Positions 1 to 12,423 of a DNA stretch of 12,423 nt are shown here, piece after piece (within the stretch, counting starts at the first letter, position 1; each line of letters begins with the position of its first letter). Source of the DNA: a virus (lineage: Duplodnaviria; Heunggongvirae; Uroviricota; Caudoviricetes); IMG/VR virus record IMGVR_UViG_2778261176_000013, positions 1-12,423 of that record; one strand, written 5' to 3'. A program made the translations under genes and the position numbers. The notes under the pieces were generated by a model, which saw nothing but the letters and a program-made list of their open reading frames with translations, was not told the origin of the DNA and made no database searches.

Positions 1-342
1 TTAGCCATTCTGATTTTCCTGCATCATGAGAAATACAATCATGGCGGCGCGGAGAGGTCTGGTATCAAATATTGGTCTTACGCCTTTTGCATCAACACAC
101 CATTCAGTTAACTGGTCTAAGATAGAAATCCTGTGTTTCTCAATAATCGGCCATGAGGCGCTAGGATCATTGCAGTAGTCAGGTAAAGGGTTTAATGGCT
201 CAAAAGTTGTATCAGTATTTCCGTAATACCATTTGTTGGTGTTATTCCCTGATGTTTCCGGTTTACATGCCCAAAGGCCTTTAAAAATTATGTCTCCTAC
301 CATTCTGTTAATTTCAAAATCACTTAACTGTGAATAGTCCAT
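1..342 (-). CDS. Hypothetical prophage protein (113 aa)
   Basis: ORF-track frame 1..345. ATG at 342..340 is preceded by AGGAGGTGA and overlaps the TGA stop of the upstream gene (TGATG). Stop TAA at 3..1. No family recognised. Confidence 0.6.
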
Positions 343-944
343 CACTTCACCTCCTGCGGCGGTTCTGGTAGAGGCATCCAGTGGGTTACGAGAACATATT
401 CGACATCACCCTCAGGACTGTCATAGAACAATCCAGAGTGGGATTCGTAGAATGCGATGTAACGCCACCCTGAATGAGTTTGAACAACAACTTCCTGCCC
501 GTCATCCGGCATTCGCTCACTACAGCTTATCCAACCATCCGGAGTTACCGGAGAGTTGCCCGATAGTTTGTTCAACTTGTAAGTCTGGCTTACAGGTTTG
601 GCACCATGAAGCATGGTGGCGCGGCAGGCGTTCCAGCCTTCATCAAAGCCGACTATGCCATTATTTAAAGACGGACGAGCATCTGGCACCACCGGCACTG
701 GCCTGGCTATATATAGCGGCTGAACATACCAGCCCTTTGATAACCAACTGTCAGCAATGTTTTTACTCCTCGTTATTGCCGGAATACCTAAGCCATTTTC
801 TGAATGCAGCCATGCCACCGGCTCCTCTTCTAGCGATGCCAGAGCAATTTCATAAGCCCGGCGCTCAATATTGTCTCGCACGTCCAGGCTGCCTATGCGT
901 TCTTTGATTTCTTTAATCATTTCTTTGTCGGTTAAAGTTGTCAT
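342..944 (-). CDS. DUF551-like prophage protein (200 aa)
   Basis: ATG at 944 with GAGGA 9 nt upstream. C-terminal motif [10 protein letters not shown] matches my recollection of the DUF551 signature; the family label is tentative. Confidence 0.7.
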
Positions 945-947
945 GTG

Positions 948-1235
948 TTAGTCCTCATCCACTTCAACGCCATCTTTCAGCGTGATGCCGTGCCAATCAT
1001 CAGCCCAACTGGTTAGCCCTGGCGCATCAATGCTAGGCATATAAACGCTTGCAGTGTGGTAGCCCTTATCGTTATCAATGCTGGCAACGTGCTCGCCGTT
1101 GTATGCGCTCAGCGTGTCCAGGACGCTATAAAACTTTCCTCCGGCTGCCCTGAAATCCTTTACAGCCTTCACAAGGCGATTCCACGCTTTTTCCTGTTCT
1201 GGCGTCAGGTCGATTAATTCCTGCAAAGTTGCCAT
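948..1235 (-). CDS. Hypothetical prophage protein (95 aa)
   Basis: Start trimmed to ATG at 1235, which has AAGGAGGG directly upstream and lies 1 nt after the TGA stop of the upstream gene (TGATATG). The ORF-track start at 1265 would overlap that gene. Confidence 0.6.
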   Translation of the reverse strand: MATLQELIDLTPEQEKAWNRLVKAVKDFRAAGGKFYSVLDTLSAYNGEHVASIDNDKGYHTASVYMPSIDAPGLTSWADDWHGITLKDGVEVDED

Positions 1236-1236
1236 A

Positions 1237-1965
1237 TCACCCTCCTTTGATGCCAATGCCAGCAAGCCAGTTTCTTATGCCGATATATTCAGCGTTCCTG
1301 AAACCGCCATTTACATATATAAATGGCAAGCGAAGATTGTGACCATTGGCTGCCAGGTAGTCTTTACAACCCTGTTCGGTGAAACAGCAGGTAACGAATT
1401 CATCAATATCTTTCACAGCAACGCGCCGCCATTTTTCTGGTGGTTCCCGAAAGTTTTCATGAAGTAGTTCGAGACGACGACTTTGGCGTTTATTGGCTTC
1501 ATTGCCATCTTCATCAACCCAGACAATCCTGTCATAGTCATAATCAGCATCAACAACGATTTCGCGCTTTTGATACACACAAAACATAGGGTCTGACGTT
1601 ATTCGATTATCCTGTGTTCGAATATTTTCACCGATGATGCCAAACGAATCTGGTGCAGATTTTGTCTTCAACTCTTCGATACGTTTGCTTTGAGCTTCCA
1701 GTTCATCAAGAAGCGCAAGCATGGTAGCCGGACTGGCTGCGGCGATGAATTCAGCATTTGCCTGCTGTTCCATTTGGAAATCTTCATCGAAACCGCTTTC
1801 AGGATGCGCTCCTTCAATTCTGCAAATGGGAATATATCCAGCAGCCTCGCGATGAATTAGCGCATCATCACCATCAAATCGGCCCTCTCCATATTCGAGC
1901 GACCATACACCACACGTTGCTTTCTCTGCCTTTTCACGCAGTGCCTGATAGTCAATCTTGCTCAC
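1237..1965 (-). CDS. ead/Ea22-like family protein (242 aa)
   Basis: Start trimmed to GTG at 1965, with AAGGAGGAAACC upstream and a GTGA overlap with the upstream stop. Protein begins SKIDYQALREKAEKA and contains LALLDELEAQSKRIEELK, which resembles Ea22-type prophage proteins as I recall them. Confidence 0.65.
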   Translation of the reverse strand: MSKIDYQALREKAEKATCGVWSLEYGEGRFDGDDALIHREAAGYIPICRIEGAHPESGFDEDFQMEQQANAEFIAAASPATMLALLDELEAQSKRIEELKTKSAPDSFGIIGENIRTQDNRITSDPMFCVYQKREIVVDADYDYDRIVWVDEDGNEANKRQSRRLELLHENFREPPEKWRRVAVKDIDEFVTCCFTEQGCKDYLAANGHNLRLPFIYVNGGFRNAEYIGIRNWLAGIGIKGG

Positions 1966-2621
1966 TGGTTTCCTCCTTTGCGAAGCTGTTCCGCACAATC
2001 CAGCAGGGCGTCCGTCGCTTCTTTCACCGTAACGATGTCGCCATCGTCCAGCCCGACAACCGTCGCGTTCTTAACGAACACCGAGCAAAGGTCATTAAAC
2101 GCCTGCGCCCGCACTTCAGCCAGGCATTTGCGAAACTCGGAAACGTACTGTTCGACGCTCATTCCCCAGCTAAGTGGACATTCATTGAATGTTTCGCCTT
2201 CGTGCTCTTCATCAGGTAGCTCTTTGGTAAAGAACTCACGTTCAATGGCGTGGAGTGTGTCAGCAAAACGACGTAAGTTACTCAAACCTGTCGTAATGGA
2301 GAATTCAGGAGCATCACATCCGACGCCCATCTGCTGATAAACGGCGGTTTTGAAGGCCTTCAGCCCCGCATTCTCCGCCGCCAACGCCGAAAACTTCTCG
2401 TGTGCCAACTTAACAGCCGCATCAGCCTGCTTAATTGACTCAATCGCTTTCTGCTGGTCTTCGGCCAGCGCATTAGCACGCACCAGTTGCACTTCCAGTT
2501 GCGTTGCCAAATCGCTGATCAGCTTTGCCACACTGCGCATATCAACGGCACCACATTCTGCTTTCAGTTCCGAAGCCATCTCATGCCCGGCGGCAACTAA
2601 CCCTTTGATATTACTTTCCAT
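1962..2621 (-). CDS. Hypothetical coiled-coil prophage protein (219 aa)
   Basis: ATG at 2621 with GAGGGT 5-6 nt upstream. N-terminal half is Ala/Glu/Lys/Gln-rich (coiled-coil-like). Stop overlaps the start of the Ea22-like gene (translational coupling). Confidence 0.65.
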   Translation of the reverse strand: MESNIKGLVAAGHEMASELKAECGAVDMRSVAKLISDLATQLEVQLVRANALAEDQQKAIESIKQADAAVKLAHEKFSALAAENAGLKAFKTAVYQQMGVGCDAPEFSITTGLSNLRRFADTLHAIEREFFTKELPDEEHEGETFNECPLSWGMSVEQYVSEFRKCLAEVRAQAFNDLCSVFVKNATVVGLDDGDIVTVKEATDALLDCAEQLRKGGNQ

Positions 2622-2682
2622 CTTTACCCTCGCTTATCCACATAACTTATTGATTACATTGATAACTAAAAAGATCGTCGAT

Positions 2683-3027
2683 TCAGAACTCTTCGATGTT
2701 CCAGCCACCACCTGTTTTCTTTGGTTTAACCGTTACCCCGATGATTCGGAACGGATACTGATCTGCGGCGACTTTGGTTTTCACCCTGGCGTCGTCGGTC
2801 CAGAAACCTTTCACTTCGTGCAGTTCCATCTCTCCGGTGGCGAGCATCACAGCGAAATCTGGCGTATAGAACGTGTTGTCAGCTAACCGCAGCTTGATAC
2901 CCTCGAATCGATACCAGGCGATTTCCCCTGCACGTTTACGCAGCTCAAGGTGCTGGCAATACGCAGATTCAGTTTTGTTCATCTGGCCTGTTTTGAGTCG
3001 ACCAAGAGCCTGTATCTGTTTTCTCAT
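2683..3027 (-). CDS. DUF1064-like protein with PD-(D/E)xK-type motif (114 aa)
   Basis: ATG at 3027 with GAGGT upstream. Contains YTPDF...ELHEVKG, a PD-x(n)-ExK arrangement typical of restriction-endonuclease-fold nucleases. DUF1064 assignment is from memory. Confidence 0.65.
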   Translation of the reverse strand: MRKQIQALGRLKTGQMNKTESAYCQHLELRKRAGEIAWYRFEGIKLRLADNTFYTPDFAVMLATGEMELHEVKGFWTDDARVKTKVAADQYPFRIIGVTVKPKKTGGGWNIEEF

Positions 3028-3115
3028 GATTTACCTCTGAGGTAATTAAAAACCACATAAGACATGAAATCAATAGAGTTTATAATATTTTGTTACCTAA
3101 CAGGTAATTATCGAG
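3028..3115 (-). promoter_or_regulatory. Second PL-like promoter-operator cassette between the P-like and DUF1064-like genes
   Basis: Minus-strand reading: operator B (3093-3107), 19-bp gap, -35 TTGATT (3073..3068), 17-bp spacer, -10 TTTAAT (3050..3045), operator A (3031-3045) overlapping the -10 and the SD of the gene starting at 3027. Shares CTATTGA and ATTACCTCA with the PL-like region. Confidence 0.5.
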
Positions 3116-3119
3116 GCGT

Positions 3120-3139
3120 AAAAAAATGCGCTATCGCGC
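3120..3139 (-). terminator. Weak tR2-like intrinsic terminator immediately after the P-like gene
   Basis: On the minus strand GCGC-GATA-GCGC, then A, then T7. The stem is only 4 bp. Confidence 0.4.
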
Positions 3140-3144
3140 TGGTA

Positions 3145-3921
3145 TTACTTGATAAATCCTGCCGCCTTTCCCCGCCTGTATTCCTCCATCAGCCACTGCG
3201 CCGGTGTTATTCCCCCAAGGGTGGCGGCGTTAGGCATGCACCCGAAACTTCGCCCTGGTGGATGGTAAACGTCTCTCCCTGTGTCCGGAGGTGTACTCAT
3301 GGGCTCTGGCTTTGCCTGTATGCTGATCACCGGATCGGGTATCTGCTGTCCGGAAGCCACCTTTTTCGCCCAATCATCGAGCAGCCTGCGCGCGTGTTTC
3401 TCAACCTCAATCTCGCTAAGCTGGCGCTGATACATTGCACGGCGGGTATCACATACGACCCAGTACATAACCGGATGTCGCCACGGGAATCTTTCGGGAC
3501 CACCAGGATATAAACTTTTTTCCTTGCTGTACCGGTGAAACTCCGCCATCACATCGTCAATGGTGACGCCAAGAACCATCTTGCTGTCTTTGCACCACTT
3601 GATGAATTGCCCAGGCGACGGCCAGAACGGAGATTCACTGGCGCGGGCGTGGCGCATACCAGCGTTAACCTGTTCCATTGTTGTGATCCCATTCTCCAGA
3701 AACGCAAGCATCCATTGCTTACGGAATTCATTAAGTTTGTTCTGCTCCCTTATGGTCGAAACGCTTGCAGGAAATGCAGCCTGTAACTGGACAAATAGTT
3801 CATTGAAAATTCTAGCAACCTGCTCCTTTTTGCCATTGCTGTCACGCCGCTCTTCATGCACAGCAACACCATGCTCACGTAAGCGATCGTACTCATTGAG
3901 AAGTTCTGGAGTTGATTTCAT
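3145..3921 (-). CDS. Replication protein P-like (DnaB helicase loader)
   Basis: [44 protein letters not shown] closely parallels the lambda P segment [23 protein letters not shown]...PFLPSPGQFVAWC as I recall it. Start overlaps the end of the O-like gene, as in lambda. Confidence 0.85.
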
Positions 3922-4723
3922 CCCACACCCCTTCTATCCAGTCAGTGTTATTCCAGTCAAGCTCATCGCTTTTCCCGGCGTTTTTTGATTTTCCCCTGAT
4001 ATGATTTACGTGCCTGGCGAATTTTTGTTCCCACTGAACCTGCGTGAACACTTTGCCCTCAGCCATCCAGTAATCCCGGAATGCAGCAAGTTCAGCAGGT
4101 GTAAATTCCGGTTCCGGCAGGGCCGTTCCCCACAGCGCAGCACGCCGTCGAAAATCCGGCGACGGATGCCAGCCATCGGTCATCGGAAATTTCCCAATAG
4201 GTTCACTCAGGCCATCCAGAAATGCAGGTTCTGCCACCTGCAACGGCGTACCGTTCGCTTCACTGGTCGGATCACTCTCGCGCGCGTGCGCTATGTGTGG
4301 GGTTTTATATATATCTTCCTCTTCCTCTTCCTCTGGTAACTCCTTTTGTAACGCTGTTGGCGTTACTTTTTGCGTTACTCGTTTTCGATGCTCTGCCACT
4401 CTTCTATTCGTAAGTGCACGTTTTTTCGATGATTCTCCATTATGTCGCTCAAAGTTTGGAAGAATTAGTTTGCCGTCATGATAAGCAAGCCATCCGACGC
4501 TAATGAGGGCGTCAGCAAATCCTGTAATAAAAGCGAGTCTATCAAGTACTCCTTTTGTAACGCTGCCAGCGTTACCGTCTATTGTTTGCTGGTCAGCCCA
4601 TGCCCATATACGAACCAGCTTTCCAAGAACAGCATCTGGATCAATACCCAGAATTTCTGCTATCTGAAAAATTTCAGGTTTATCAGGAGTGATAACTTCA
4701 ACCTTAATCCAGCTGCTTGCCAT
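3893..4723 (-). CDS. Replication initiator / replisome organiser (O-like)
   Basis: Sits immediately upstream of and overlapping the P-like gene. Start trimmed to ATG at 4723 (AGAGGGGAAA SD); the ORF-track GTG at 4741 is less likely. Has an acidic linker (EEEEEED) and contains palindromic iteron-like DNA repeats. Confidence 0.75.
4341..4383. repeat. Iteron-like palindrome cluster inside the O-like gene (candidate origin element)
   Basis: CTCCTTTTGTAACGCTG-TTG-GCGTTAC, then TTTTT-GCGTTAC. Palindrome GTAACGC/GCGTTAC at 4348-4366 plus a third half-site at 4372-4378. Adjacent to (CG)4 at 4281-4288, AT-rich TTTTATATATAT at 4303-4314 and a (CTTCCT)3 repeat. Confidence 0.5.
4560..4585. repeat. Second copy of the iteron-like element inside the O-like gene
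   Basis: TCCTTTTGTAACGCTG-C-CAGCGTTAC; 19-bp perfect palindrome at 4567-4585. The shared 17-nt left arm is identical to the copy at 4341, but the two copies fall in different reading frames of the O-like ORF. Confidence 0.5.
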
Positions 4724-4916
4724 AGGTTTCCCCTCTTGCACTCTTTAGTGCACAAGCAAATTCATTACGATGGCGGTTGGCGCTATTCATTGCACATTCA
4801 ACACATGTTCCGTTCAGAACATACCTTTCAGAGAGATGGCCGTGACGGCACCGCTTTCCTGTGAAATAGCGATTTAACCCGGCTTTTGCGGCCTCCATTC
4901 TGGTTACTATCTTCAA
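4704..4916 (-). CDS. Small zinc-ribbon protein in the cII position (64-70 aa)
   Basis: Cys/His cluster CRHGH...CVEC. Lies between the cro-like and O-like genes. Start is ambiguous: TTG at 4916 (AAGGGG upstream) or ATG at 4898. Overlaps the O-like start by about 20 nt in another frame. Confidence 0.45.
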
Positions 4917-4994
4917 TTTTTCCGCCCCTTTTTGTTATTGATATTGGCTATTTTGCACAATTGGAAAATTTGATCAACCAGATTTGGTTTTTTA

Positions 4995-5009
4995 TTACCT
5001 TTGAGGTAC
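4995..5009. promoter_or_regulatory. Isolated operator-family site downstream of the cro-like gene
   Basis: TTACC-TTTGA-GGTAC (9/10 half-site match). Preceded on the minus strand by CATATCTATT, the same 10-mer found upstream of the PL-like -35. Confidence 0.4.
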
Positions 5010-5019
5010 GAATAGATAT

Positions 5020-5043
5020 GAAAAGACCGCCGGGTGGCGGTCT
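5020..5043 (-). terminator. tR1-like hairpin between the cro-like gene and the cII-position ORF
   Basis: Perfect 8-bp stem AGACCGCC / GGCGGTCT with a 4-nt loop, followed on the minus strand by TTTT then CATATCTATT. Confidence 0.55.
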
Positions 5044-5064
5044 ACAGAGGGTTGTAGCTGGATA

Positions 5065-5295
5065 TCATGAGTAGAAGAAGTATGCCAGTTCTGCTTTTGA
5101 GCGCAGCCATTGTCTTGTTTTACAGGCTTTAAAAAGCCCATTCATCAATACTTTACCTGGCATTTTGCGCTTACCTGTTAAGTGAGTCTGGATATAGTGA
5201 CTCGTCGTTCCGGCTTCCTGTGCGAAGGCTTCACGCTCATCCGGAGTAAGTGCAAGCCAGTGCTTTTTGAAATCGAAATGTCCGTTATCGCTCAT
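5065..5295 (-). CDS. Cro-like HTH DNA-binding protein (76 aa)
   Basis: Small protein divergent from the repressor gene, with an HTH-like segment REAFAQEAGTTSHYIQTHLTGKR. It is the first gene of the operon containing O and P. Confidence 0.65.
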   Translation of the reverse strand: MSDNGHFDFKKHWLALTPDEREAFAQEAGTTSHYIQTHLTGKRKMPGKVLMNGLFKACKTRQWLRSKAELAYFFYS

Positions 5296-5449
5296 AGCTA
5301 TTGCCTGATATTTATTTCAGATAATAAATATTCACCCATAAGGTAACAAAAATCAAGGATAGTTACCCATGAGGTGCATTTACCTGTTGGGTAATATTGC
5401 TTTAAATTGAATCATCTACTGATTCATATATGAGGCGATTTTCCAGAAA
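5296..5449. promoter_or_regulatory. Divergent repressor/cro control region (OR-like) with three operator-type sites
   Basis: Three sites of the ATTACC-N5-GGTAAT family: 5332-5346 (TCACC-CATAA-GGTAA, 9/10), 5363-5377 (TTACC-CATGA-GGTGC, 8/10), 5380-5394 (TTACC-TGTTG-GGTAA, perfect). Candidate minus-strand promoter: -35 TTGTTA 5349..5344, -10 TATTAT 5326..5321. Confidence 0.6.
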
Positions 5450-6034
5450 ATGAAAAGTATCCAGGACGTCCGCAGGCAAAATCTCAACGACTTGATCGAC
5501 CGTGAATTCAATGGTGTTCAGACGCGGATGGCAGAAAAACTTGGAACTCAGGCAAATCTGGTAAACCGCTGGGCTCTTGGCAAGAAGGTTATCGGCGACC
5601 AGGTTGCGCGAAAAATTGAAGCTGCCGCCAATAAACCACGTAACTGGCTTGATATCGATCGCTCGCTTTCTCAGGAAGGTTTTCAGCCTGTCGGCCCAAG
5701 CGACATTGGTCAGCTGGCGGCTCACAACCTGGAACGCTGGATGAGCGAAAGCCGCGACCTTTCAACTCAGGGAAAACTTCACCGCGCATCCGGCGTCGCC
5801 CAGGTGACAATCAGCCGCCTGTTAAACAATGAGGTCAGTGTTTCCATTTCCACCCTGGAGAATGTTGCATCAGCATTCGGGCGTCACGGCTATGAATTAC
5901 TGATTCACCCGCACGACCCTGCGACCATCAACTATGACCGCTCGCGCTACGCATTGTTACCCGAAACCGAGAAAGCAAAGATCGAAAGTTACATTGAATT
6001 TGTCATCAACCAGAACGAAAAAAACAAACAATAA
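5450..6034 (+). CDS. CI-like immunity repressor with two HTH domains and no S24 peptidase domain (194 aa)
   Basis: Two XRE-type HTH segments (GVQTRMAEKLGTQANLVNRW and ASGVAQVTISRLLNNEVSVSISTLENVASAF). No Ser/Lys autopeptidase region recognisable. Divergent from cro across an operator-rich intergenic region and followed by a strong intrinsic terminator. Confidence 0.7.
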   Translation: MKSIQDVRRQNLNDLIDREFNGVQTRMAEKLGTQANLVNRWALGKKVIGDQVARKIEAAANKPRNWLDIDRSLSQEGFQPVGPSDIGQLAAHNLERWMSESRDLSTQGKLHRASGVAQVTISRLLNNEVSVSISTLENVASAFGRHGYELLIHPHDPATINYDRSRYALLPETEKAKIESYIEFVINQNEKNKQ

Positions 6035-6055
6035 AATCATATTTTTCAGTAAGTA

Positions 6056-6078
6056 AGCCGCCTTCTGGCGGCTTTTTT
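6056..6078 (+). terminator. Intrinsic terminator downstream of the CI-like repressor gene
   Basis: AGCCGCC-TTCT-GGCGGCT stem-loop followed by a T6 tract. Confidence 0.75.
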
Positions 6079-6084
6079 ATTGCC

Positions 6085-6187
6085 TATACTATTACCTAAT
6101 GGGTAATTTTTTTAACTCATATCTATTGACACCAAACCAAATACGCATAATTATTACCTCAACGGTAACAGACCGAGGTAACAAGTT
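6085..6187 (+). promoter_or_regulatory. PL-like early promoter flanked by two perfect operators
   Basis: -35 TTGACA at 6126-6131, with a -10-like CATAATTA at 6146-6153. Operator G (6092-6106) lies 19 bp upstream of -35; operator H (6154-6168) abuts the -10 and covers the likely start site. Confidence 0.6.
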
Positions 6188-6340
6188 ATGCAGTGGAAAA
6201 TCATCAACGGTTGGTACTGCGTTACTGCATGCGGATTCATGAGCTGGAAGTTCCGCACCTTACAGGAAGGCATTAAGTGGGCTTTCGTCAGCAAAGAAGC
6301 TCGCGATGTGGCCAACGATAACGAGATATGGGAGGGCTGA
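6188..6340 (+). CDS. Hypothetical Trp-rich small protein (50 aa), first gene of the PL-like operon; not in the supplied ORF track
   Basis: ATG at 6188 with GAGG 9 nt upstream, 20 nt after operator H. Hand translation: MQWKIINGWYCVTACGFMSWKFRTLQEGIKWAFVSKEARDVANDNEIWEG. Stop TGA at 6338-6340, 2 nt before the next ATG. Confidence 0.45.
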   Translation: MQWKIINGWYCVTACGFMSWKFRTLQEGIKWAFVSKEARDVANDNEIWEG

Positions 6341-6342
6341 TA

Positions 6343-6642
6343 ATGAACGTTAATCAGCAGAAAAATCTTCAAAAAATCATGCTGGCATTCGACAAGGACT
6401 ACCGCCTGTCAGAACAGCTATATGACCGACAAGTTGAACTGATCGAGAGCATCCGGCTTCATCAACTAGCCTCAACTTTCGACGCTGTAACAGGTAAAGG
6501 CGTTCGCCAGGAAGTACTGGAGGCCGCTAAAGACAGTCCAGAGTTCGAAGAACTGATGGATTCCTACCGGCGCGAGGCAATGGCAATTATCGCCCGCTGG
6601 GATCTGGCGGATCAGCTTGATGGACAGAGGGACGCGGCATGA
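6343..6642 (+). CDS. Hypothetical protein (99 aa) in the Gam/RacC position upstream of the exonuclease
   Basis: ATG at 6343 preceded by GGGAGGG. Stop overlaps the exonuclease start (ATGA). No family recognised. Confidence 0.6.
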   Translation: MNVNQQKNLQKIMLAFDKDYRLSEQLYDRQVELIESIRLHQLASTFDAVTGKGVRQEVLEAAKDSPEFEELMDSYRREAMAIIARWDLADQLDGQRDAA

Positions 6643-7538
6643 TGCGGAACGCTGGAATCATGGATAGAACAAAATACATCGGAGGAAGCGATGTTGCAGG
6701 GATTCTTGGAATTAGCCCATGGCGCACCCCGCTTGAGGTTTATCTGGATAAGGTCCAGCCACGTGTCAAACCAGTAGACCCAAGCAAGCAGAAAGTTTTC
6801 ACGCGTGGCCAGCGTATGGAGCCATACGTAATAGACCTGCTTTCTGAGGAAACAGGGATGGAAATCGTTCATCGCGGAAACCGCTATATCCACCGTGATT
6901 ACGATTTTATTGCAGCTGAGATCGATGCAGAAGCAGCGTCAGGCGAGAACATTGAGATCAAAACAGTTAGTCCGTTCAAAGCCAAAGAATGGGGAGAAAT
7001 CCAGACAGATGCAATTCCTGTGCATTACACGGCCCAGGCCATGCACGGGTTGATGGTTACAAACAAACAGGTATGCGTTTTCGGTGTGCTTATCGGTGGC
7101 GACGACTTCCGAATCTATCGGGTTGAGCGTGATGAAGAAACTATCCAGGCGATCTTAGAAAAAGAAATCGCTTTCTGGGACCGAGTGAAAAATCTTAACC
7201 CGCCGGAAGCTACCAGCGTAAGCGATGTATCGCTGATGTTTGAGAAAGATGCCGGGACAAGTATCGAGGCTGACGGAAAGGCACTCTCACTATTCAACGA
7301 TCTACGAGACATGAAGTCACGCAGAAAATTACTGGAAGAAGAAATAGCTATATCAGAAGAGAAGCTGAAGATGTACATGCAAGAGCACTCAGTCCTGACC
7401 CTAGACGGAAAGCCGCTCTGCACATGGAAATCTCAGATCAGCAACAGATTCGACCAGAAGCTATTCCAGTCAGTACACCCTGAGTTATTCGAAAAATTCA
7501 AAACAACAACGACACAACGCGTCTTCAGAATGAAGTAA
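6639..7538 (+). CDS. YqaJ-type phage exonuclease (RecE/Red-alpha functional analogue)
   Basis: N-terminal KYIGGSDVAGILGISPWRTPLEVY is the hallmark of YqaJ-like viral recombinase exonucleases. Immediately upstream of recT. Confidence 0.85.
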   Translation: MMRNAGIMDRTKYIGGSDVAGILGISPWRTPLEVYLDKVQPRVKPVDPSKQKVFTRGQRMEPYVIDLLSEETGMEIVHRGNRYIHRDYDFIAAEIDAEAASGENIEIKTVSPFKAKEWGEIQTDAIPVHYTAQAMHGLMVTNKQVCVFGVLIGGDDFRIYRVERDEETIQAILEKEIAFWDRVKNLNPPEATSVSDVSLMFEKDAGTSIEADGKALSLFNDLRDMKSRRKLLEEEIAISEEKLKMYMQEHSVLTLDGKPLCTWKSQISNRFDQKLFQSVHPELFEKFKTTTTQRVFRMK

Positions 7539-7547
7539 GGAGAAAAA

Positions 7548-8570
7548 ATGTCTATCAATGCACTTAAGGCAGCAGCTACCGGTAACCAAGTTGCACATCA
7601 TAATGAGAAACCAACAACTCTGGCCGGACTTCTGGCAGACCCAAAAATTAAAGCTCAGATGGCTTTGGCACTTCCAAAGCACATGACAGCAGACCGTCTG
7701 GCGCGCATAGCAACCACAGAGATCCGAAAGGTTCCAAAACTTGCATCATGCGACCAAGCCAGCTTCCTGGGGGCAATTATGCAATGTGCCCAATTGGGTC
7801 TTGAACCAGGCGGAGCTCTTGGACACGCTTACCTGATACCGTTCGACAAACGCCAGAAAGTAAATGGAAGATGGGAAACCGTATCTACAGAAGCACAGCT
7901 GATTATCGGCTATCGCGGAATGATTGACCTTGCCCGCCGCTCTGGGCAGATCCTGAGTATCTCAGCTCGTACCGTACATACAAACGACAAATTCAGCTAC
8001 TCATACGGCATGGAAGAAACGCTCGAGCATTTACCTTGCGAAACAGGTGACCGCGGAGAATTAACACACGTTTACGCCGTTGCACGACTGAAAGATGGCG
8101 GAGTCCAATTTGAAGTTATGAGCCGGGCAGCCGTTGAGAAAGTTCGTGCACTGAGCAAAGCCGGTAGCAGTGGCCCATGGGTTGATCACTTCGATGAGAT
8201 GGCTAAAAAAACAGTAATTCGCCGACTGTTCAAATATCTTCCTGTTTCTATTGAAATGCAGAAGGCTGTTGTTATGGATGAGCGCGCTGAAGCTGGACTT
8301 AGCCAAGATAACGCAGCTGTTATCACTGGTGAATATTCCGTAGTTGACGATGAGCGTCAACACCTATCGCCAATTTCAGATTCAGAACGAGAAGAAGCTC
8401 GAGAATATATCATCGCGATACTTAATAGCCTGGATCCATCTGCTGAAGATGCAAAAACGATGTTCAAGCGCGCTGAAAATGAAATTAACACCATGGCTGA
8501 AAAGCTCGGTGATGAATATCACCAAAAATTCATGATGACGCTTAACGATATGCGTCCAGAATTCGAGTAA
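7548..8570 (+). CDS. recT: RecT single-strand annealing recombinase
   Basis: AAGGAG SD. Long stretches match Rac RecT as I recall it: LPKHMTADRLARIATTEIRKVPKL, QLIIGYRGMIDLARRSGQI, THVYAVARLKDGG.QFEVM, EMAKKT.IRRLFKYLPVSIE. Confidence 0.92.
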   Translation: MSINALKAAATGNQVAHHNEKPTTLAGLLADPKIKAQMALALPKHMTADRLARIATTEIRKVPKLASCDQASFLGAIMQCAQLGLEPGGALGHAYLIPFDKRQKVNGRWETVSTEAQLIIGYRGMIDLARRSGQILSISARTVHTNDKFSYSYGMEETLEHLPCETGDRGELTHVYAVARLKDGGVQFEVMSRAAVEKVRALSKAGSSGPWVDHFDEMAKKTVIRRLFKYLPVSIEMQKAVVMDERAEAGLSQDNAAVITGEYSVVDDERQHLSPISDSEREEAREYIIAILNSLDPSAEDAKTMFKRAENEINTMAEKLGDEYHQKFMMTLNDMRPEFE

Positions 8571-8619
8571 CCACCACCGCGGCGCCACGTGCGCCTCACT
8601 GCAACCAAGAGAGGTATTC

Positions 8620-8868
8620 ATGAAAGGTGCATTAGGTAAGAAAGAACTCCTGGCGGTGGTGCCACTGTCATGGAGCACTATCGACCGTATGGAGCGCGCA
8701 GGGGAATTTCCTAAACGCTGGTATATCACCGATAAACGCTGCGCATGGAACCGTGACGAAGTTGAGCGTTGGCTTGATGAACGTCAGGCAGCAAGCCCGG
8801 CAGAGTTCCAGGGTAAAAAGCCTCCTGTTCAGCAACGTGTATATCGTCCTGTGAGCAACGCTGCATGA
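8620..8868 (+). CDS. AlpA/Xis-family small DNA-binding protein (excisionase-like regulator)
   Basis: AGAGAGG SD. Motif SWSTIDRMERAGEFPKRWYITDKRCAWNRDEVERWL resembles AlpA/excisionase winged-helix proteins. Confidence 0.7.
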   Translation: MKGALGKKELLAVVPLSWSTIDRMERAGEFPKRWYITDKRCAWNRDEVERWLDERQAASPAEFQGKKPPVQQRVYRPVSNAA

Positions 8869-8977
8869 GTGCGCTGCTAAGGCACTGGAGCAAATGGTCA
8901 GGATGGTACTTATTCCTGGCCTCTGTTTCAGCATGGCTTTATCTGCTGGCATTAATTTTCAGAGAGGGTTGGATTAA

Positions 8978-9277
8978 GTGAGAAAGTTAAGCCGACTTGA
9001 AAAATATCACATGAACAAGGTTTCAATGCGCAGTCCGTCAAAGATTGTCGCCGTTACTCCTGCGGCGATAGAGATCGAAAAACGCGCGATTGAAAGAGAG
9101 AAAAAAGGGCAGTTCCGCATTGCCGCTCACCTTTGGCTTCAGTGTATGGATGTTGCTTCTGGTGATGTTGAGCGTGCAAGGATCGCGGTTCGCAGGGACC
9201 AATGTATCACAAAAGGTAACGGCCTTCGCCGTGGCGACTATAGCGGCATAGGATGTTGTGGGGTGGTTTATGACTAA
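8978..9277 (+). CDS. PerC-like putative transcriptional regulator (99 aa; start uncertain)
   Basis: GTG at 8978 preceded by AGAGAGGG; internal ATGs at 9011 and 9026 are alternatives. RIAAHLWLQCMDVASGDVERARIAVRRDQC resembles the PerC-family pattern. Overlaps the methyltransferase start. Confidence 0.45.
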   Translation: MRKLSRLEKYHMNKVSMRSPSKIVAVTPAAIEIEKRAIEREKKGQFRIAAHLWLQCMDVASGDVERARIAVRRDQCITKGNGLRRGDYSGIGCCGVVYD

Positions 9278-9920
9278 GAAATACACACTAATCTATGCAG
9301 ATCCACCCTGGGTATACCGGGACAAAGCCGCAGATGGTAATCGCGGTGCCGGTTTTAAATATCCGGTTATGAGTGTGCTGGACATCTGCCGCCTTCCTGT
9401 GTGGGATTTGGCCGATGAAAACTGTCTGTTGGCCATGTGGTGGGTGCCAACACAACCACTCGAAGCACTAAAAGTTATTGAAGCCTGGGGATTCCGTCTG
9501 ATGACCATGAAGGGATTCACGTGGATAAAATGTGGTAGTCGACAACCAGATAAACTGGTTATGGGTATGGGTCACATGACTCGCGCCAATAGTGAAGATT
9601 GCCTGTTTGCGGTAAAGGGAAAACTACCTCCGCGCATTAATGCAGGGATCGTTCAGTCATTTACCGCACCGCGACTTGAGCATTCAAGAAAACCAGATGT
9701 CGTTCGTGAAAAACTTGTGCAATTGTTAGGCGATGTTTCTCGCATTGAACTGTTCGCCCGCCAGTCGTCTCATGGCTTCGATGTTTGGGGTAATCAGTGC
9801 GAAGACCCGGCAGTGCAACTACACCCTGGATACGCGTTGGATATTGGCGGATTAACAAATGCATTCAGCAATTCTCCGCTGTCACCAACAGACAACCAGG
9901 GGCGGGAGCGTGCAGCATGA
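9270..9920 (+). CDS. MT-A70-family DNA N6-adenine methyltransferase (orphan, no adjacent restriction enzyme)
   Basis: N-terminal YTLIYADPPWVY carries the DPPW catalytic motif. ATG at 9270 (GTG at 9258 is an alternative). Stop overlaps the start of the next ORF (ATGA). Confidence 0.8.
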   Translation: MTKKYTLIYADPPWVYRDKAADGNRGAGFKYPVMSVLDICRLPVWDLADENCLLAMWWVPTQPLEALKVIEAWGFRLMTMKGFTWIKCGSRQPDKLVMGMGHMTRANSEDCLFAVKGKLPPRINAGIVQSFTAPRLEHSRKPDVVREKLVQLLGDVSRIELFARQSSHGFDVWGNQCEDPAVQLHPGYALDIGGLTNAFSNSPLSPTDNQGRERAA

Positions 9921-10165
9921 AGCAGATTATGGTTGCACACAACGGCGTCAGGTTTGAAGTCGTCATGGTTTTGACTAAGTTCCACAATGATGAGGTATTG
10001 CACAGAAAAGAAACTGTAACTTACCGTTATAAACACCGCAGTTCAGCTGTTAGAAAATTACGGAAGATTGCGGAAGAACTAAAAAATGATCCTCATCGTG
10101 TTATTGAGGTAAAAGGCAACCCATATAAAATCAAAACTTCAGTGGAGCTAAGACATATGCAATAA
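9917..10165 (+). CDS. Hypothetical basic protein (82 aa), coupled to the methyltransferase
   Basis: ATG at 9917 overlaps the methyltransferase stop, with GGGAGCG upstream. Lys/Arg-rich. Followed by a 324-bp intergenic region with a terminator-like element. Confidence 0.5.
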   Translation: MKQIMVAHNGVRFEVVMVLTKFHNDEVLHRKETVTYRYKHRSSAVRKLRKIAEELKNDPHRVIEVKGNPYKIKTSVELRHMQ

Positions 10166-10296
10166 AATCACGCCTGACGAATCGCGATTATCTCGCTATT
10201 GGTATTGCAGAGATTGCTGGACTCAATGGCGCATGATTTGACAATGCCGCCAGAGCTATCGCATACTGACCGCACTAGAAAACAAACAGCGGTCAT

Positions 10297-10324
10297 CCGC
10301 ACCCGATAGCTTTGCGGCTTTTTT
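10297..10324 (+). terminator. Possible intrinsic terminator after the methyltransferase operon
   Basis: CCGCA ... TGCGG stem (5 bp) with an 11-nt loop, followed by C and a T6 tract. Confidence 0.35.
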
Positions 10325-10409
10325 ATGCCTGCAATCTGGCATAGTCACATCCGTACAAAGGTCGGGTGGAGAGGCGTAATACAACACCCGAAAGGGGAAT
10401 ATGCCCGGA

Positions 10410-10489
10410 GCTACTGTTTGTGCTCTAGTTGACACCCGATCACCAGTTACTAACTGGTTTTCGTAACTAAAAACAAACAGGAGGTCATC
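10410..10489 (+). promoter_or_regulatory. Antirepressor upstream region with TTGACA hexamer and a 15-bp perfect palindrome
   Basis: TTGACA at 10429-10434. Perfect palindrome CCAGTTA-C-TAACTGG at 10443-10457. No convincing -10 hexamer found by eye. Confidence 0.4.
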
Positions 10490-11140
10490 ATGACCAGTCA
10501 ACTCATCCCCGTATTCAACGGCACTATATCCAACGAAACCGCTCTTCTCGTTAATGCCCGTGATTTACACACTTTCCTCGATGTGGGTAAGCGATTTGCT
10601 TCGTGGATTGTCGAACGAATTGCTGAATATGGTTTCGTTGAAAATCAAGACTTTATGATTATTTCCCAAGTTCGGGAAAAAATAGGCAGAGGCCGTCCTG
10701 CAAAAGACTACCACCTCACCCTCGATACAGCCAAAGAGCTGGCGATGGTCGAGCGTAATGAAAAAGGTCGTCAGGTACGACGCTACTTCATTGAATGCGA
10801 GAAACGTTTAAGACAACAAGAAACAAAAGTGGAGAAGGTCTTGTCAGGCTTCATGCCCGCCATTATGGAGGCGATCAAGCTGGAAGACAAAAAAGAATAC
10901 AGTGCCCCACTGAAGCCCGGCTACCGCAGCCTGATTCACTCGCCGTCTGGTGTTCTCGGCCTGACGGAGAACTCACTGCTGATGAATCTGCTGAACCAGT
11001 TACAGGAAGACGGGCACGACGTATCGGGTGCGGCGGCGGAGCTGACCACCATGTTCTGCTACATCGTCGGTGTGAGCAAATGCCTGCGTGATATCCAGAC
11101 CCACGCGGAGTACATCAACGACAAGGCAGGGTTCTTCTGA
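10490..11140 (+). CDS. Phage antirepressor, AntA/AntB N-terminal domain type (216 aa)
   Basis: AGGAGG 7 nt upstream of ATG. N-terminal region (LIPVFNGT...ARDLHTFLDVGKRFASWIVERIAEYGFVENQDF...KDYHLTLDTAKELAMVERNEKGRQVRRYF) matches AntA/AntB antirepressor domains as I recall them. Confidence 0.75.
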   Translation: MTSQLIPVFNGTISNETALLVNARDLHTFLDVGKRFASWIVERIAEYGFVENQDFMIISQVREKIGRGRPAKDYHLTLDTAKELAMVERNEKGRQVRRYFIECEKRLRQQETKVEKVLSGFMPAIMEAIKLEDKKEYSAPLKPGYRSLIHSPSGVLGLTENSLLMNLLNQLQEDGHDVSGAAAELTTMFCYIVGVSKCLRDIQTHAEYINDKAGFF

Positions 11141-11172
11141 CGGGCGGCGGCACATGGATGTGTCGGGCAAAA

Positions 11173-12423
11173 TTATTCCCCCGCCATCCACTTCTCAAAC
11201 TTCGACGGGGAGAACGGAATCAGATCCGTATGCTCCCCGTCAATCCATGAATCAATCATATCGGCCCACTGCTGCAACATGTAGGCGCGCTGTCTGGCGT
11301 ATTCCGCTTTGTTGTATACGGCGCGCACACCTTTCTGCTCATGTGCCAGAGCCTTTTCAATCCAGTCTGAAGGATAACCAGCCTCATGCAACAACGTACT
11401 GGCTGTACGGCGCATATCATGTACAGTGAAGTCCTGAATATGCTCACCATCTTCATTTATTATTTTCACCGTTCTGTCGATCAGAGAGTTCAGCGCGGCA
11501 TTAGATAATGGCTTCCGGAAATTGTAACGACCAGGAACCAGATATTCACTTCCACCAGCGCACATCTGCAACCCGACCAATATATCCTGTGCCTGTTTAG
11601 GCAGGTAAATAACGTGCGCCCGGCTTCCCTTCATGCGGTCTGGAGGAATTGTCCATGTCCATTTTTTAAAATCTATTTCATCCCACGTTGCATTGGTGAA
11701 TTCGCCCTTACGAACCATAGTGATAAGCACCAGTTTTAAAGCCATTTTCATAGTGCCCATAGCACCAATGGCATCCAGCGTGCGGAAGAACAGGCCAATT
11801 TCTTCTGGTGTCAGTGTTCGCTCTCGTGGTTTAAATATGGCGATAGACGAAGGTTTAATGTCAGCCGCAGGATTAAACAAACCATGACCACGGTCATTGG
11901 CGTGACGGTATACGCTACTGATGATCTCCCTGGCCTGCACTGCTGTTGCCCGGCCACCGCGTTCGACAATCCGGTCACACAAATCACGAACCATCGATGT
12001 GGTAATTTCAGCCATCATTTTATTGCCAAGAACCGGAAGTATGTCACGGTCGATCACCGCCTGTTTCATTGCGCGGGTACTGTCAGCCAGGATGACGTGT
12101 TTCATATAACTGTCGGTATGTACCGCAAACGTCTCGGCACCACGAATCTTTTTGATACCGTCACGTTTAGCCGCAGCCGGTGACTGGCCTGCTTTAAGCA
12201 GCTTCTTTGCAGCAATCAGTTCTTCTCGCGCTTCTGCCAGGCTGATACCGTCACGCCCATACTGCCCGATTACCAGTGTTTCGCGGCGACCGTTGATACG
12301 GTAGTCATAGCGAAACGAGACCGTGCCTGACGTAAGCACAGCTACATACAGCCCGTCACGATCGGAGACCTTGTACAGTTTGTCCTGCGGCTTGAGGTTT
12401 TTTAATTTTGTATCGGTAAGCAC
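11173..12423 (-). CDS. Tyrosine integrase, P4-type (N-terminus truncated by window edge)
   Basis: N-terminal LTDTKLKNLKP...YKVSDRDGLYVAVLTSGTVSFRYDYRINGRRETL is typical of P4-like integrases. C-terminal catalytic region has HDMRRT and AHEQKGVRAVYNKAEY (conserved Tyr). The ORF runs to the last base of the window. Confidence 0.9.
   Translation of the reverse strand: MLTDTKLKNLKPQDKLYKVSDRDGLYVAVLTSGTVSFRYDYRINGRRETLVIGQYGRDGISLAEAREELIAAKKLLKAGQSPAAAKRDGIKKIRGAETFAVHTDSYMKHVILADSTRAMKQAVIDRDILPVLGNKMMAEITTSMVRDLCDRIVERGGRATAVQAREIISSVYRHANDRGHGLFNPAADIKPSSIAIFKPRERTLTPEEIGLFFRTLDAIGAMGTMKMALKLVLITMVRKGEFTNATWDEIDFKKWTWTIPPDRMKGSRAHVIYLPKQAQDILVGLQMCAGGSEYLVPGRYNFRKPLSNAALNSLIDRTVKIINEDGEHIQDFTVHDMRRTASTLLHEAGYPSDWIEKALAHEQKGVRAVYNKAEYARQRAYMLQQWADMIDSWIDGEHTDLIPFSPSKFEKWMAGE

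Follow-up and report, generated by a model that had tools for sequence, protein, structure and literature searches.

A small Cys/His early gene at the immunity boundary of an epsilon15/phiV10-like prophage is related to the N-terminal modules of His-Me nucleases

The window analysed here, a stretch of 12,423 nucleotides (nt) corresponding to positions 1 to 12,423 of the IMG/VR virus record IMGVR_UViG_2778261176_000013, is an Escherichia coli prophage of the epsilon15/phiV10 type (genus Uetakevirus) integrated at guaA. Between its cro-like gene and its O-like replication initiator gene, an open reading frame (ORF) at 4704..4916 on the minus strand, given the working name zn, was found to be a genuine, functional gene whose product is a single, nuclease-free copy of a Cys/His module that forms the N-terminus of thousands of His-Me nucleases. 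Database entries for the gene existed already under the label of hypothetical protein (epsilon15 gp40, phiV10 gp42 and WP_000706991.1), and its family was represented by unannotated PHROGs; the link of this switch-adjacent gene to the nuclease module is new, as are the Cys-His-Cys-Cys (CHCC) set of putative ligands, the start codon, the expression signals and the recurrent association with replication genes. The best explanation, which has about an even chance of being right, is that zn encodes a small zinc-stabilised DNA-binding early protein, which is made at a low level and assists or regulates the replication operon without cutting DNA.

The zn gene, its start codon and its overlap with the O-like gene

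As the preliminary description had reported, the ORF specified 70 amino acids (aa) including the stretch CRHGH...CVEC; it ran from a TTG start at 4916-4914 to a TAA stop at 4706-4704. An identical coding sequence of 213 nt was present in RefSeq (WP_000706991.1, "hypothetical protein"), and the product matched phrog_1081, a family of unknown function, with an E value of 2.2e-27, residues 1-61 aligning with profile positions 1-61 of 67. Among 44 distinct alleles, the ratio of nonsynonymous to synonymous substitution rates (dN/dS) was 0.106 at a dS of about 1.4, with 0.084 in the module (residues 1-46) and 0.25 in the tail. No premature stop was observed in 82 related loci, the frame being unbroken through the first 61 codons. 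A second sample consisted of 80 further loci, chosen on the sole criterion that their cro was identical to that of the window; zn was present in 78, and the remaining two contigs stopped directly after cro, so that all 78 informative loci possessed the gene, one of them with a frameshift located downstream of the module. An interrupted frame in close relatives, which the preliminary description had named as grounds for rejecting its reading, was therefore seen only once and beyond the module. The invariant residues were encoded by codons free to vary at synonymous sites, which indicates that the constraint acts on the protein and not on an overlapping DNA signal; no regulatory DNA element was found within the coding sequence. 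In the Shiga toxin phage TL-2011b, an orthologue 98.6% identical to zn was left unannotated (JQ011317.1, 6424-6633).

The start codon, described earlier as either TTG 4916 or ATG 4898, could be assigned by comparison. The position of TTG 4916 was occupied in relatives by GTG (most), TTG or ATG, and a Shine-Dalgarno-like sequence (GAGG, GGAGG or GGGG) was located 5-9 nt upstream of the homologous start in all relatives, the one in the window being AAGGGG at 4925..4930 on the minus strand, 8 nt upstream of the TTG. The N-terminal sequence MKIVTR was conserved as well, and several relatives had Ala, Leu or Val in place of Met7, which corresponds to ATG 4898. Because a start codon and a Shine-Dalgarno sequence were kept at the homologous position and Met7 was not, translation of zn starts at TTG 4916. 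The mostly weak start codons (TTG or GTG) suggest a low level of translation. Riboregulation of the start was considered and dropped, since the 5' untranslated region and start region showed no significant RNA structure (z about 0) and an inverted repeat around the start codon (I8) was not conserved in relatives.

At its 3' end, zn overlapped the start of the O-like gene in a different frame, as had been claimed; counted from the RefSeq start of the latter (ATG at 4723-4721), the overlap amounted to 20 nt (4704..4723, minus strand). The O-like protein begins with MASSWIK, similar to the N-termini of other O-like proteins (MAGDWIK and MARIRTIK), and the Shine-Dalgarno sequence of its gene, GAGGGG (4730-4735), falls within zn codons 61-63 (ARGE). 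Judged from the sequence, this overlap with an embedded ribosome binding site suggests translational coupling of the two genes.

A Cys/His module shared with His-Me nucleases

The predicted protein was 7.9 kDa, with a net charge of +7 and a pI of 9.7, and consisted of two parts: the zinc module, residues 1-46 (4779..4916, minus strand; mean AlphaFold2 confidence, pLDDT, of 89), and a basic C-terminal helix with a tail, residues 47-70 (4707..4778, minus strand). The putative ligands were encoded by codons 23 (Cys, 4848-4850), 27 (His, 4836-4838), 38 (Cys, 4803-4805) and 41 (Cys, 4794-4796). In close homologues, these four residues and G26 were invariant, and A9, G13, L14, R16, T19, G20, R31, N35, G36 and R50 were also conserved. 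When 335 further modules, which were chosen by the CHCC pattern itself, were added, a flanking consensus was found common to them, ..II.R.EA...GL.RYFTG.PCK.GH.AERYV..G.CVEC, with R6, A9, G13, Y17-F-T-G20, G26 and R31 as the conserved positions besides the ligands; A9, G26 and R31 were each kept in 94% of the modules. In the spacing C-x3-H-x10-C-x2-C, the central interval was x10 in 377 of 405 occurrences. Thus, the Cys/His pattern noted in the preliminary description was retained across homologues as C23-x3-H27-x10-C38-x2-C41, whereas His25 and Cys55 were not conserved. A single zinc ion coordinated by C23, H27, C38 and C41 is predicted from this conservation and from the modelled topology.

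The predicted topology comprised a helix, two short strands joined by the loop that carries C23 and H27, and a long helix (residues 39-65) with C38 and C41 at its N-terminus. Residues 65-70 were lineage-specific and modelled with low confidence (pLDDT below 50 at residues 68-70), most homologues ending after ARGEx at residue 64. In these models, the arrangement resembles a treble-clef or knuckle-plus-helix finger. The term zinc ribbon used earlier does not fit it: with the C-x3-H pair in an interstrand loop and the second pair at a helix N-terminus, the models lacked the two CxxC-type knuckles on beta-hairpins and the three-stranded sheet of that fold, which was accordingly rejected. The earlier statement that the product is a small Cys/His protein and not a CII-type helix-turn-helix (HTH) protein agreed with the data, no Pfam family, Phage_CII included, being matched at E<=1 and the predicted structure not being HTH; homology to CII was therefore rejected. 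A scan of NCBIfam gave nothing usable, and a sequence-profile search of the PDB gave matches at chance level only (E>=0.055). A catalytic core of the HNH or Endonuclease_7 type was likewise not matched by Pfam at E<=1 in the protein, which stops at residue 70, and the possibility that the module itself is a degenerate HNH core was rejected (hhalign probability of 1.4% against the HNH core).

The most variable positions of the module, residues 22 (codon at 4851-4853; 2.7 bits) and 28 (4833-4835; 2.5 bits), flank C23 and H27. Among prophages with identical cro, zn alleles differed only at residue 22 (P, T, Q or S; R/Q in the window type). These two residues may be specificity determinants or positions involved in an arms race.

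A profile built from close zn homologues retrieved 16,339 cluster representatives at E<=1e-3 and 3,401 at E<=1e-10. The best 149 representatives were 109-541 aa long, and 147 of them contained two to four pattern-matched copies of the module (up to five matched stretches per protein as counted by HMMER); many of these top representatives carried HNH, HNH_5, HNH_4 or Endonuclease_7 domains. For the module itself, no Pfam or NCBIfam model and no solved structure were found, and the literature library that was searched yielded no description of the module or of the zn gene. Proteins with two to five tandem copies gave spurious Pfam matches to NCD3G (17 of the 149) and to prokaryotic metallothionein; as the module is without a model of its own, automatic annotation of such proteins could mislead.

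A sample unbiased for length was obtained by scanning viral contigs for DNA encoding YFTGKPCxxGH with a degenerate pattern, which yielded 113 complete ORFs. Four were of 100 aa or less, eight of 101-160 aa, and 101 longer than 160 aa. In the long ORFs, the first Cys was at median residue 24, that is, the module was N-terminal; a C-terminal His-Me nuclease was detected by motif search in 64 of the 101, and a like motif was seen by eye in nearly all of the other 37. Examples of such fusions include gp28 of Xanthomonas phage Murka (Murka_0028; module plus PF01844), CDS0040 of E. coli phage SHIN8, and an ORF of Klebsiella phage JD001, all at sites typical of free-standing homing endonuclease genes. 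The last of these (NC_020204.1, about 17086-17703, complement; L289, 2001-2618) is unannotated, starts with TTG and specifies 205 aa; situated between head-morphogenesis genes, it encoded a zinc module and an HNH nuclease and probably represents a free-standing homing endonuclease gene that the annotators overlooked.

The nearest non-orthologous relatives of zn were N-terminal domains of HNH enzymes with 50-60% identity (L083, L084, KsaM-C1 and JD001). As the family is mostly a nuclease front end, zn is a nuclease-free, single-module member of it. The mean net charge of the modules was +4.0, and binding and targeting of DNA is the most plausible function of the module in the nucleases.

Genomic setting and expression signals

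The 951 bases around the ORF were 100% identical to chromosomal prophages in many E. coli strains; of 5,426 complete E. coli genomes, 548 matched this query, 113 of them at a query coverage of at least 80%. In strain MCJCHV-1, the prophage adjoined guaA, and proteins and gene order of the window agreed with those of the epsilon15/phiV10 group and of TL-2011b. A published member of the group, vB_EcoP_ZX5, integrates at the 3' end of guaA, and the tests in that study were limited to repressor, antirepressor and integrase (PMC9782041).

The cro-like gene (5065..5295, minus strand; 76 aa, phrog_35) is divergent from a cI gene (5450..6034, plus strand) encoding a repressor-like protein of 194 aa with two HTH domains. 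The order cI, cro, about 150 nt, and zn was invariant in all Uetakevirus-like loci, even at 41% cI identity, and zn was the first gene after cro in all 78 informative loci with identical cro. Annotation, the hairpin described below and synteny bore out the cII position given earlier for zn, which lies after cro and a terminator. The gene 3' of zn varied: in the lineage of the window it was the O-like gene with the 20-nt overlap, and a few loci had another O-like gene without overlap.

Between cro and zn, an intrinsic terminator-like hairpin, AGACCGCC-ACCC-GGCGGTCT followed by TTTTC, was located at 5017..5043 on the minus strand and was kept in relatives. Its stem-loop (5024-5043, with the T run) had a predicted energy of -15 kcal/mol (z=-4.6), and the phiV10 record annotates it as a terminator. 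It was followed by an operator-like palindrome, TTACCTTTGAGGTAc (4995..5009), which shares a motif with the three sites between cI and cro and within which ACC-N6-GGTAAT was conserved in relatives. Seventeen nt further downstream began a promoter-like element (4949..4977, minus strand) with a -35 sequence TTGATC (4972-4977), a spacer of 16-17 nt, and a -10 sequence cAAAATa (4949-4955). In 59 distinct intergenic sequences (4940-5010; loci L003 and L005-L088), the blocks GGTAAT, GGTTGATC, AAAAT and ATATCAATAAC were near-invariant, and the intergenic DNA 3' of the terminator was conserved above the flanking coding sequence, the adjacent zn synonymous sites being saturated. A generic promoter scan did not list the element. 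A GATC (Dam site) was observed inside the -35-like hexamer in most of the 59 sequences. A perfect DnaA box found between the genes in one relative was not conserved and was discarded as a candidate, and Rfam gave no RNA family for 4600-5500.

The operator-like motif TTACC-N5-GGTAA had 19 matches in the window versus 1.57 expected, grouped at four intergenic places, with sites at 3031-3045, 3093-3107, 4995-5009, 5332-5346, 5363-5376, 5380-5394, 6092-6106 and 6154-6168. Three sites were located between cI and cro and one upstream of zn; two flanked a putative TTGACA-17-AATTAT promoter just past the cI terminator, and the region from the P-like to the DUF1064 gene had two around a putative TTGATT-17-TTTAAT promoter. 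The layout upstream of zn parallels that of these last two operator-flanked promoters. The cI-cro switch was bracketed by terminators at 5024-5043 and 6058-6079. Given this layout of terminators, operators and promoters, the early region seems to be divided by terminators into insulated segments that each possess a repressor-controlled promoter, and zn probably heads the replication segment under a promoter of its own, with the palindrome as putative operator.

Outside the Uetakevirus-like group, stand-alone homologues of zn with modules 50-66% identical were found in unrelated metagenomic contigs. One was directly 5' of genes for an O/DnaT-like initiator, a primase and a helicase (L292); a second overlapped the start of a gene for a 687-aa primase/helicase (L294); a third followed YqaJ exonuclease, ERF and SSB genes (L295); and a fourth lay between a DEAD helicase gene and a PriCT/Toprim/VapE primase gene (L293). 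Two more were located among small unannotated ORFs, one of them a few genes 3' of a Prim-Pol-like gene. Stand-alone homologues thus recur in early replication and recombination operons, not in immunity regions.

In the window, the O-like initiator (3893..4723, minus strand; RefSeq start ATG 4723) possessed a DnaT-like domain (PF17948, phrog_2509), separated from the N-terminal domain by the acidic run EEEEEED (about 4310-4335), and its gene overlapped that of a lambda-P-like helicase loader, located downstream, by 29 nt (3893-3921). No self-cleaving (LexA-type) peptidase domain was matched in the repressor-like protein (5450-6034), and an AntA-type antirepressor gene (10490-11140, plus strand) was located near the integrase gene. 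This combination is consistent with antirepressor-driven induction as in vB_EcoP_ZX5 (PMC9782041).

Possible roles of zn and comparison with known systems

If zn assists or regulates the replication operon as proposed above, its protein would be made at a low level upon infection or induction, owing to the weak TTG or GTG start, would bind DNA or, less probably, another nucleic acid but not cleave it, and would act on the early replication operon, to the next gene of which zn would be translationally coupled. In the Uetakevirus-like phages, the nuclease-free copy of the module has become fixed immediately after cro, behind the terminator.

Several observations weigh against this proposal. No candidate DNA target of zn was identified, fold searches with the module gave no significant match to any PDB chain, and small zinc fingers can bind protein or RNA as well as DNA. 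In 41 of 83 related loci, zn was followed not by an initiator gene but by an unrelated accessory gene (C5-cytosine-methylase-like, Ser/Thr-phosphatase-like, ASCH-like or PAPS-reductase-like), the ATG of which overlapped the zn stop by 4 nt (loci L039-L082, locus coordinates about 3190-4400). This site looks like an insertion hotspot for morons, and an O-like gene was found further downstream in every accessory-gene locus examined for one. In phiV10, cI and cro were 100% identical to those of the window and zn only 61%, and in Klebsiella phage ST11-OXA245phi3.2, the O type was 90% identical and zn only 49%. That zn alleles track neither cro nor the O type argues against a specific partnership with either; what zn recognises is thus probably shared by all these phages or supplied by the host.

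The same data bear on the possibility that zn is a dedicated replication factor, which would bind to the origin or to the complex of initiator and helicase loader and without which phage DNA replication would not start efficiently. Consistent with this, zn was always in an operon 5' of O-like and P-like genes, and independent lineages have placed a homologue right before initiator or primase-helicase genes. However, about half of the relatives had an unrelated accessory gene between zn and O, and zn accompanied at least three initiator types with no co-variation in its sequence, so that such a dedicated role is unlikely.

A more specific form of regulation, in which a homing-endonuclease zinc module, domesticated by epsilon15/phiV10-like temperate phages with the Shiga toxin phage TL-2011b among them, serves as a sequence-specific regulator at the immunity boundary and controls lysis-lysogeny or the firing of replication, is quite unlikely. 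Were it true, zn would be an analogue of CII, or of an initiation-control protein, built on an undescribed zinc-finger fold, of which thousands of nucleases carry tandem arrays that look programmable.

A role for zn analogous to that of CII, namely that of a post-cro activator of repressor and/or integrase synthesis that promotes lysogeny and is non-homologous to CII, was suggested by its position, first after cro and a terminator as cII is after tR1, and by the invariance of this placement beside cI-cro; the protein is basic and probably binds nucleic acid. Moreover, as no Phage_CII homologue was detected among the early genes of the window, a CII-type role is vacant there. Against this, inspection of the cro-zn region and of the zn 5' codons gave no PRE-like antisense promoter, binding repeats or common motif; these codons varied freely at synonymous sites, unlike the PRE overlap with lambda cII; and the conserved intergenic element is directed towards zn, not cI. 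In addition, phages with identical cI and cro carried zn alleles only 61% identical, the contigs with stand-alone homologues had replication or recombination genes adjoining them and no visible immunity genes, and the family is mainly a nuclease appendage, lytic phages included. A function of this kind is quite unlikely.

Small phage zinc fingers acting on protein or RNA are known, and zn could be one that targets RNA polymerase, another protein or an mRNA, like Ogr/Delta, TraR/DksA or Mu Com. The failure to find a DNA target for zn would agree with this, but Pfam yielded none of the families Ogr_Delta, TraR/DksA and Com at E<=1, and tandem module arrays on DNA nucleases point to a DNA ligand; the chance of such a target is slim. 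Slimmer still is the chance that zn is a nuclease-free decoy, which occupies the target of related HNH enzymes and thereby shields the genome, or represses a neighbour gene in the way of I-TevI. The relatives closest to zn apart from its orthologues are N-termini of HNH enzymes, and the hypervariable positions 22 and 28 are compatible with an arms race; however, neither a nuclease matching the supposed decoy nor its target site could be identified, the idea leaves the fixed place at the immunity boundary unexplained, and it is conjectural. Finally, a decaying endonuclease remnant or a mere coupling leader ORF with a functionless product, to which the weak start, the overlap with the next gene and the lack of annotation in TL-2011b might point, is effectively excluded by the selection data, that is, a module dN/dS of 0.08 at saturated dS, residues invariant despite freely varying synonymous sites, one frameshift in about 160 loci, and presence in all informative loci.

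Whichever role applies, zn is an early gene that adjoins the immunity switch and is conserved throughout its phage group. The group spans phiV10 (used in O157 typing and biocontrol), the serotype-converting epsilon15 and a Shiga toxin phage, and about 10% of the complete E. coli genomes contain DNA matching the zn region. The gene defines a very large unnamed domain family of more than 16,000 sequence clusters, in which the module probably serves homing-type nucleases as a zinc finger that targets DNA. It is also found in tandem arrays, the arrangement that made C2H2 fingers engineerable. Annotation can be corrected for the TTG or GTG starts, for the TL-2011b record from which zn is absent, and for module-HNH genes missed in other phages. 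A regulatory role at the switch, if true, would make zn clearly interesting.

Among known genes, epsilon15 gp40, phiV10 gp42 and Tyrion gp42 are positional orthologues of zn with 55-63% identity, and these phages share cI, cro, terminator, zn and replication genes with the window. The three proteins differ from zn in their ATG starts, their lengths of 66-69 aa, their C-terminal tails and the lack of overlap with the next gene.

Like zn, lambda CII and P22 C1 are small basic proteins whose genes follow cro and a terminator among the rightward early genes. No relationship in sequence or fold was observed between zn and lambda CII, CII being an HTH tetramer and zn a Cys/His module. Expression of lambda cII needs antitermination at tR1, whereas the early region of the window appears to be composed of segments with promoters of their own, and zn is apparently served by an operator-flanked promoter; no CII-type target promoters were found in the cro-zn region or at the 5' end of zn.

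P2 Ogr, P4 Delta, 186 B, Mu Com and TraR/DksA-like proteins resemble zn in being phage-encoded, of 60-75 aa, and with one zinc site (a predicted one in zn). They differ in ligand spacing, which is C-x2-C-x22-C-x4-C in Ogr, and in not being known as tandem arrays on nucleases, and zn had no Pfam match to them.

The homing endonuclease modules NUMOD1, NUMOD3, NUMOD4, AP2 and IENR are modular DNA-binding domains (PMC5714182). They share with the zn module a small size, single or tandem occurrence on His-Me nucleases and a presumed contribution to target specificity. The zn module did not match the Pfam NUMOD and AP2 models; the known modules have HTH or AP2 folds without metal, whereas the zn-type module is of the Cys/His type and attached N-terminally.

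The closest resemblance was to the N-terminal modules of the His-Me nucleases themselves (phrog_1081, phrog_23777, phrog_15231 and the N-terminal part of phrog_1035), which were homologous by profile with 40-60% identity and had the same CHCC spacing, the same flanking sequence, IxxR.EA...GL.RYFTG.PC..GH..ER....G.C..C, and the same placement at the extreme N-terminus. Unlike these proteins, zn consists of one module without a nuclease domain and is located at one fixed temperate-phage locus, rather than being scattered in the manner of mobile endonuclease genes.

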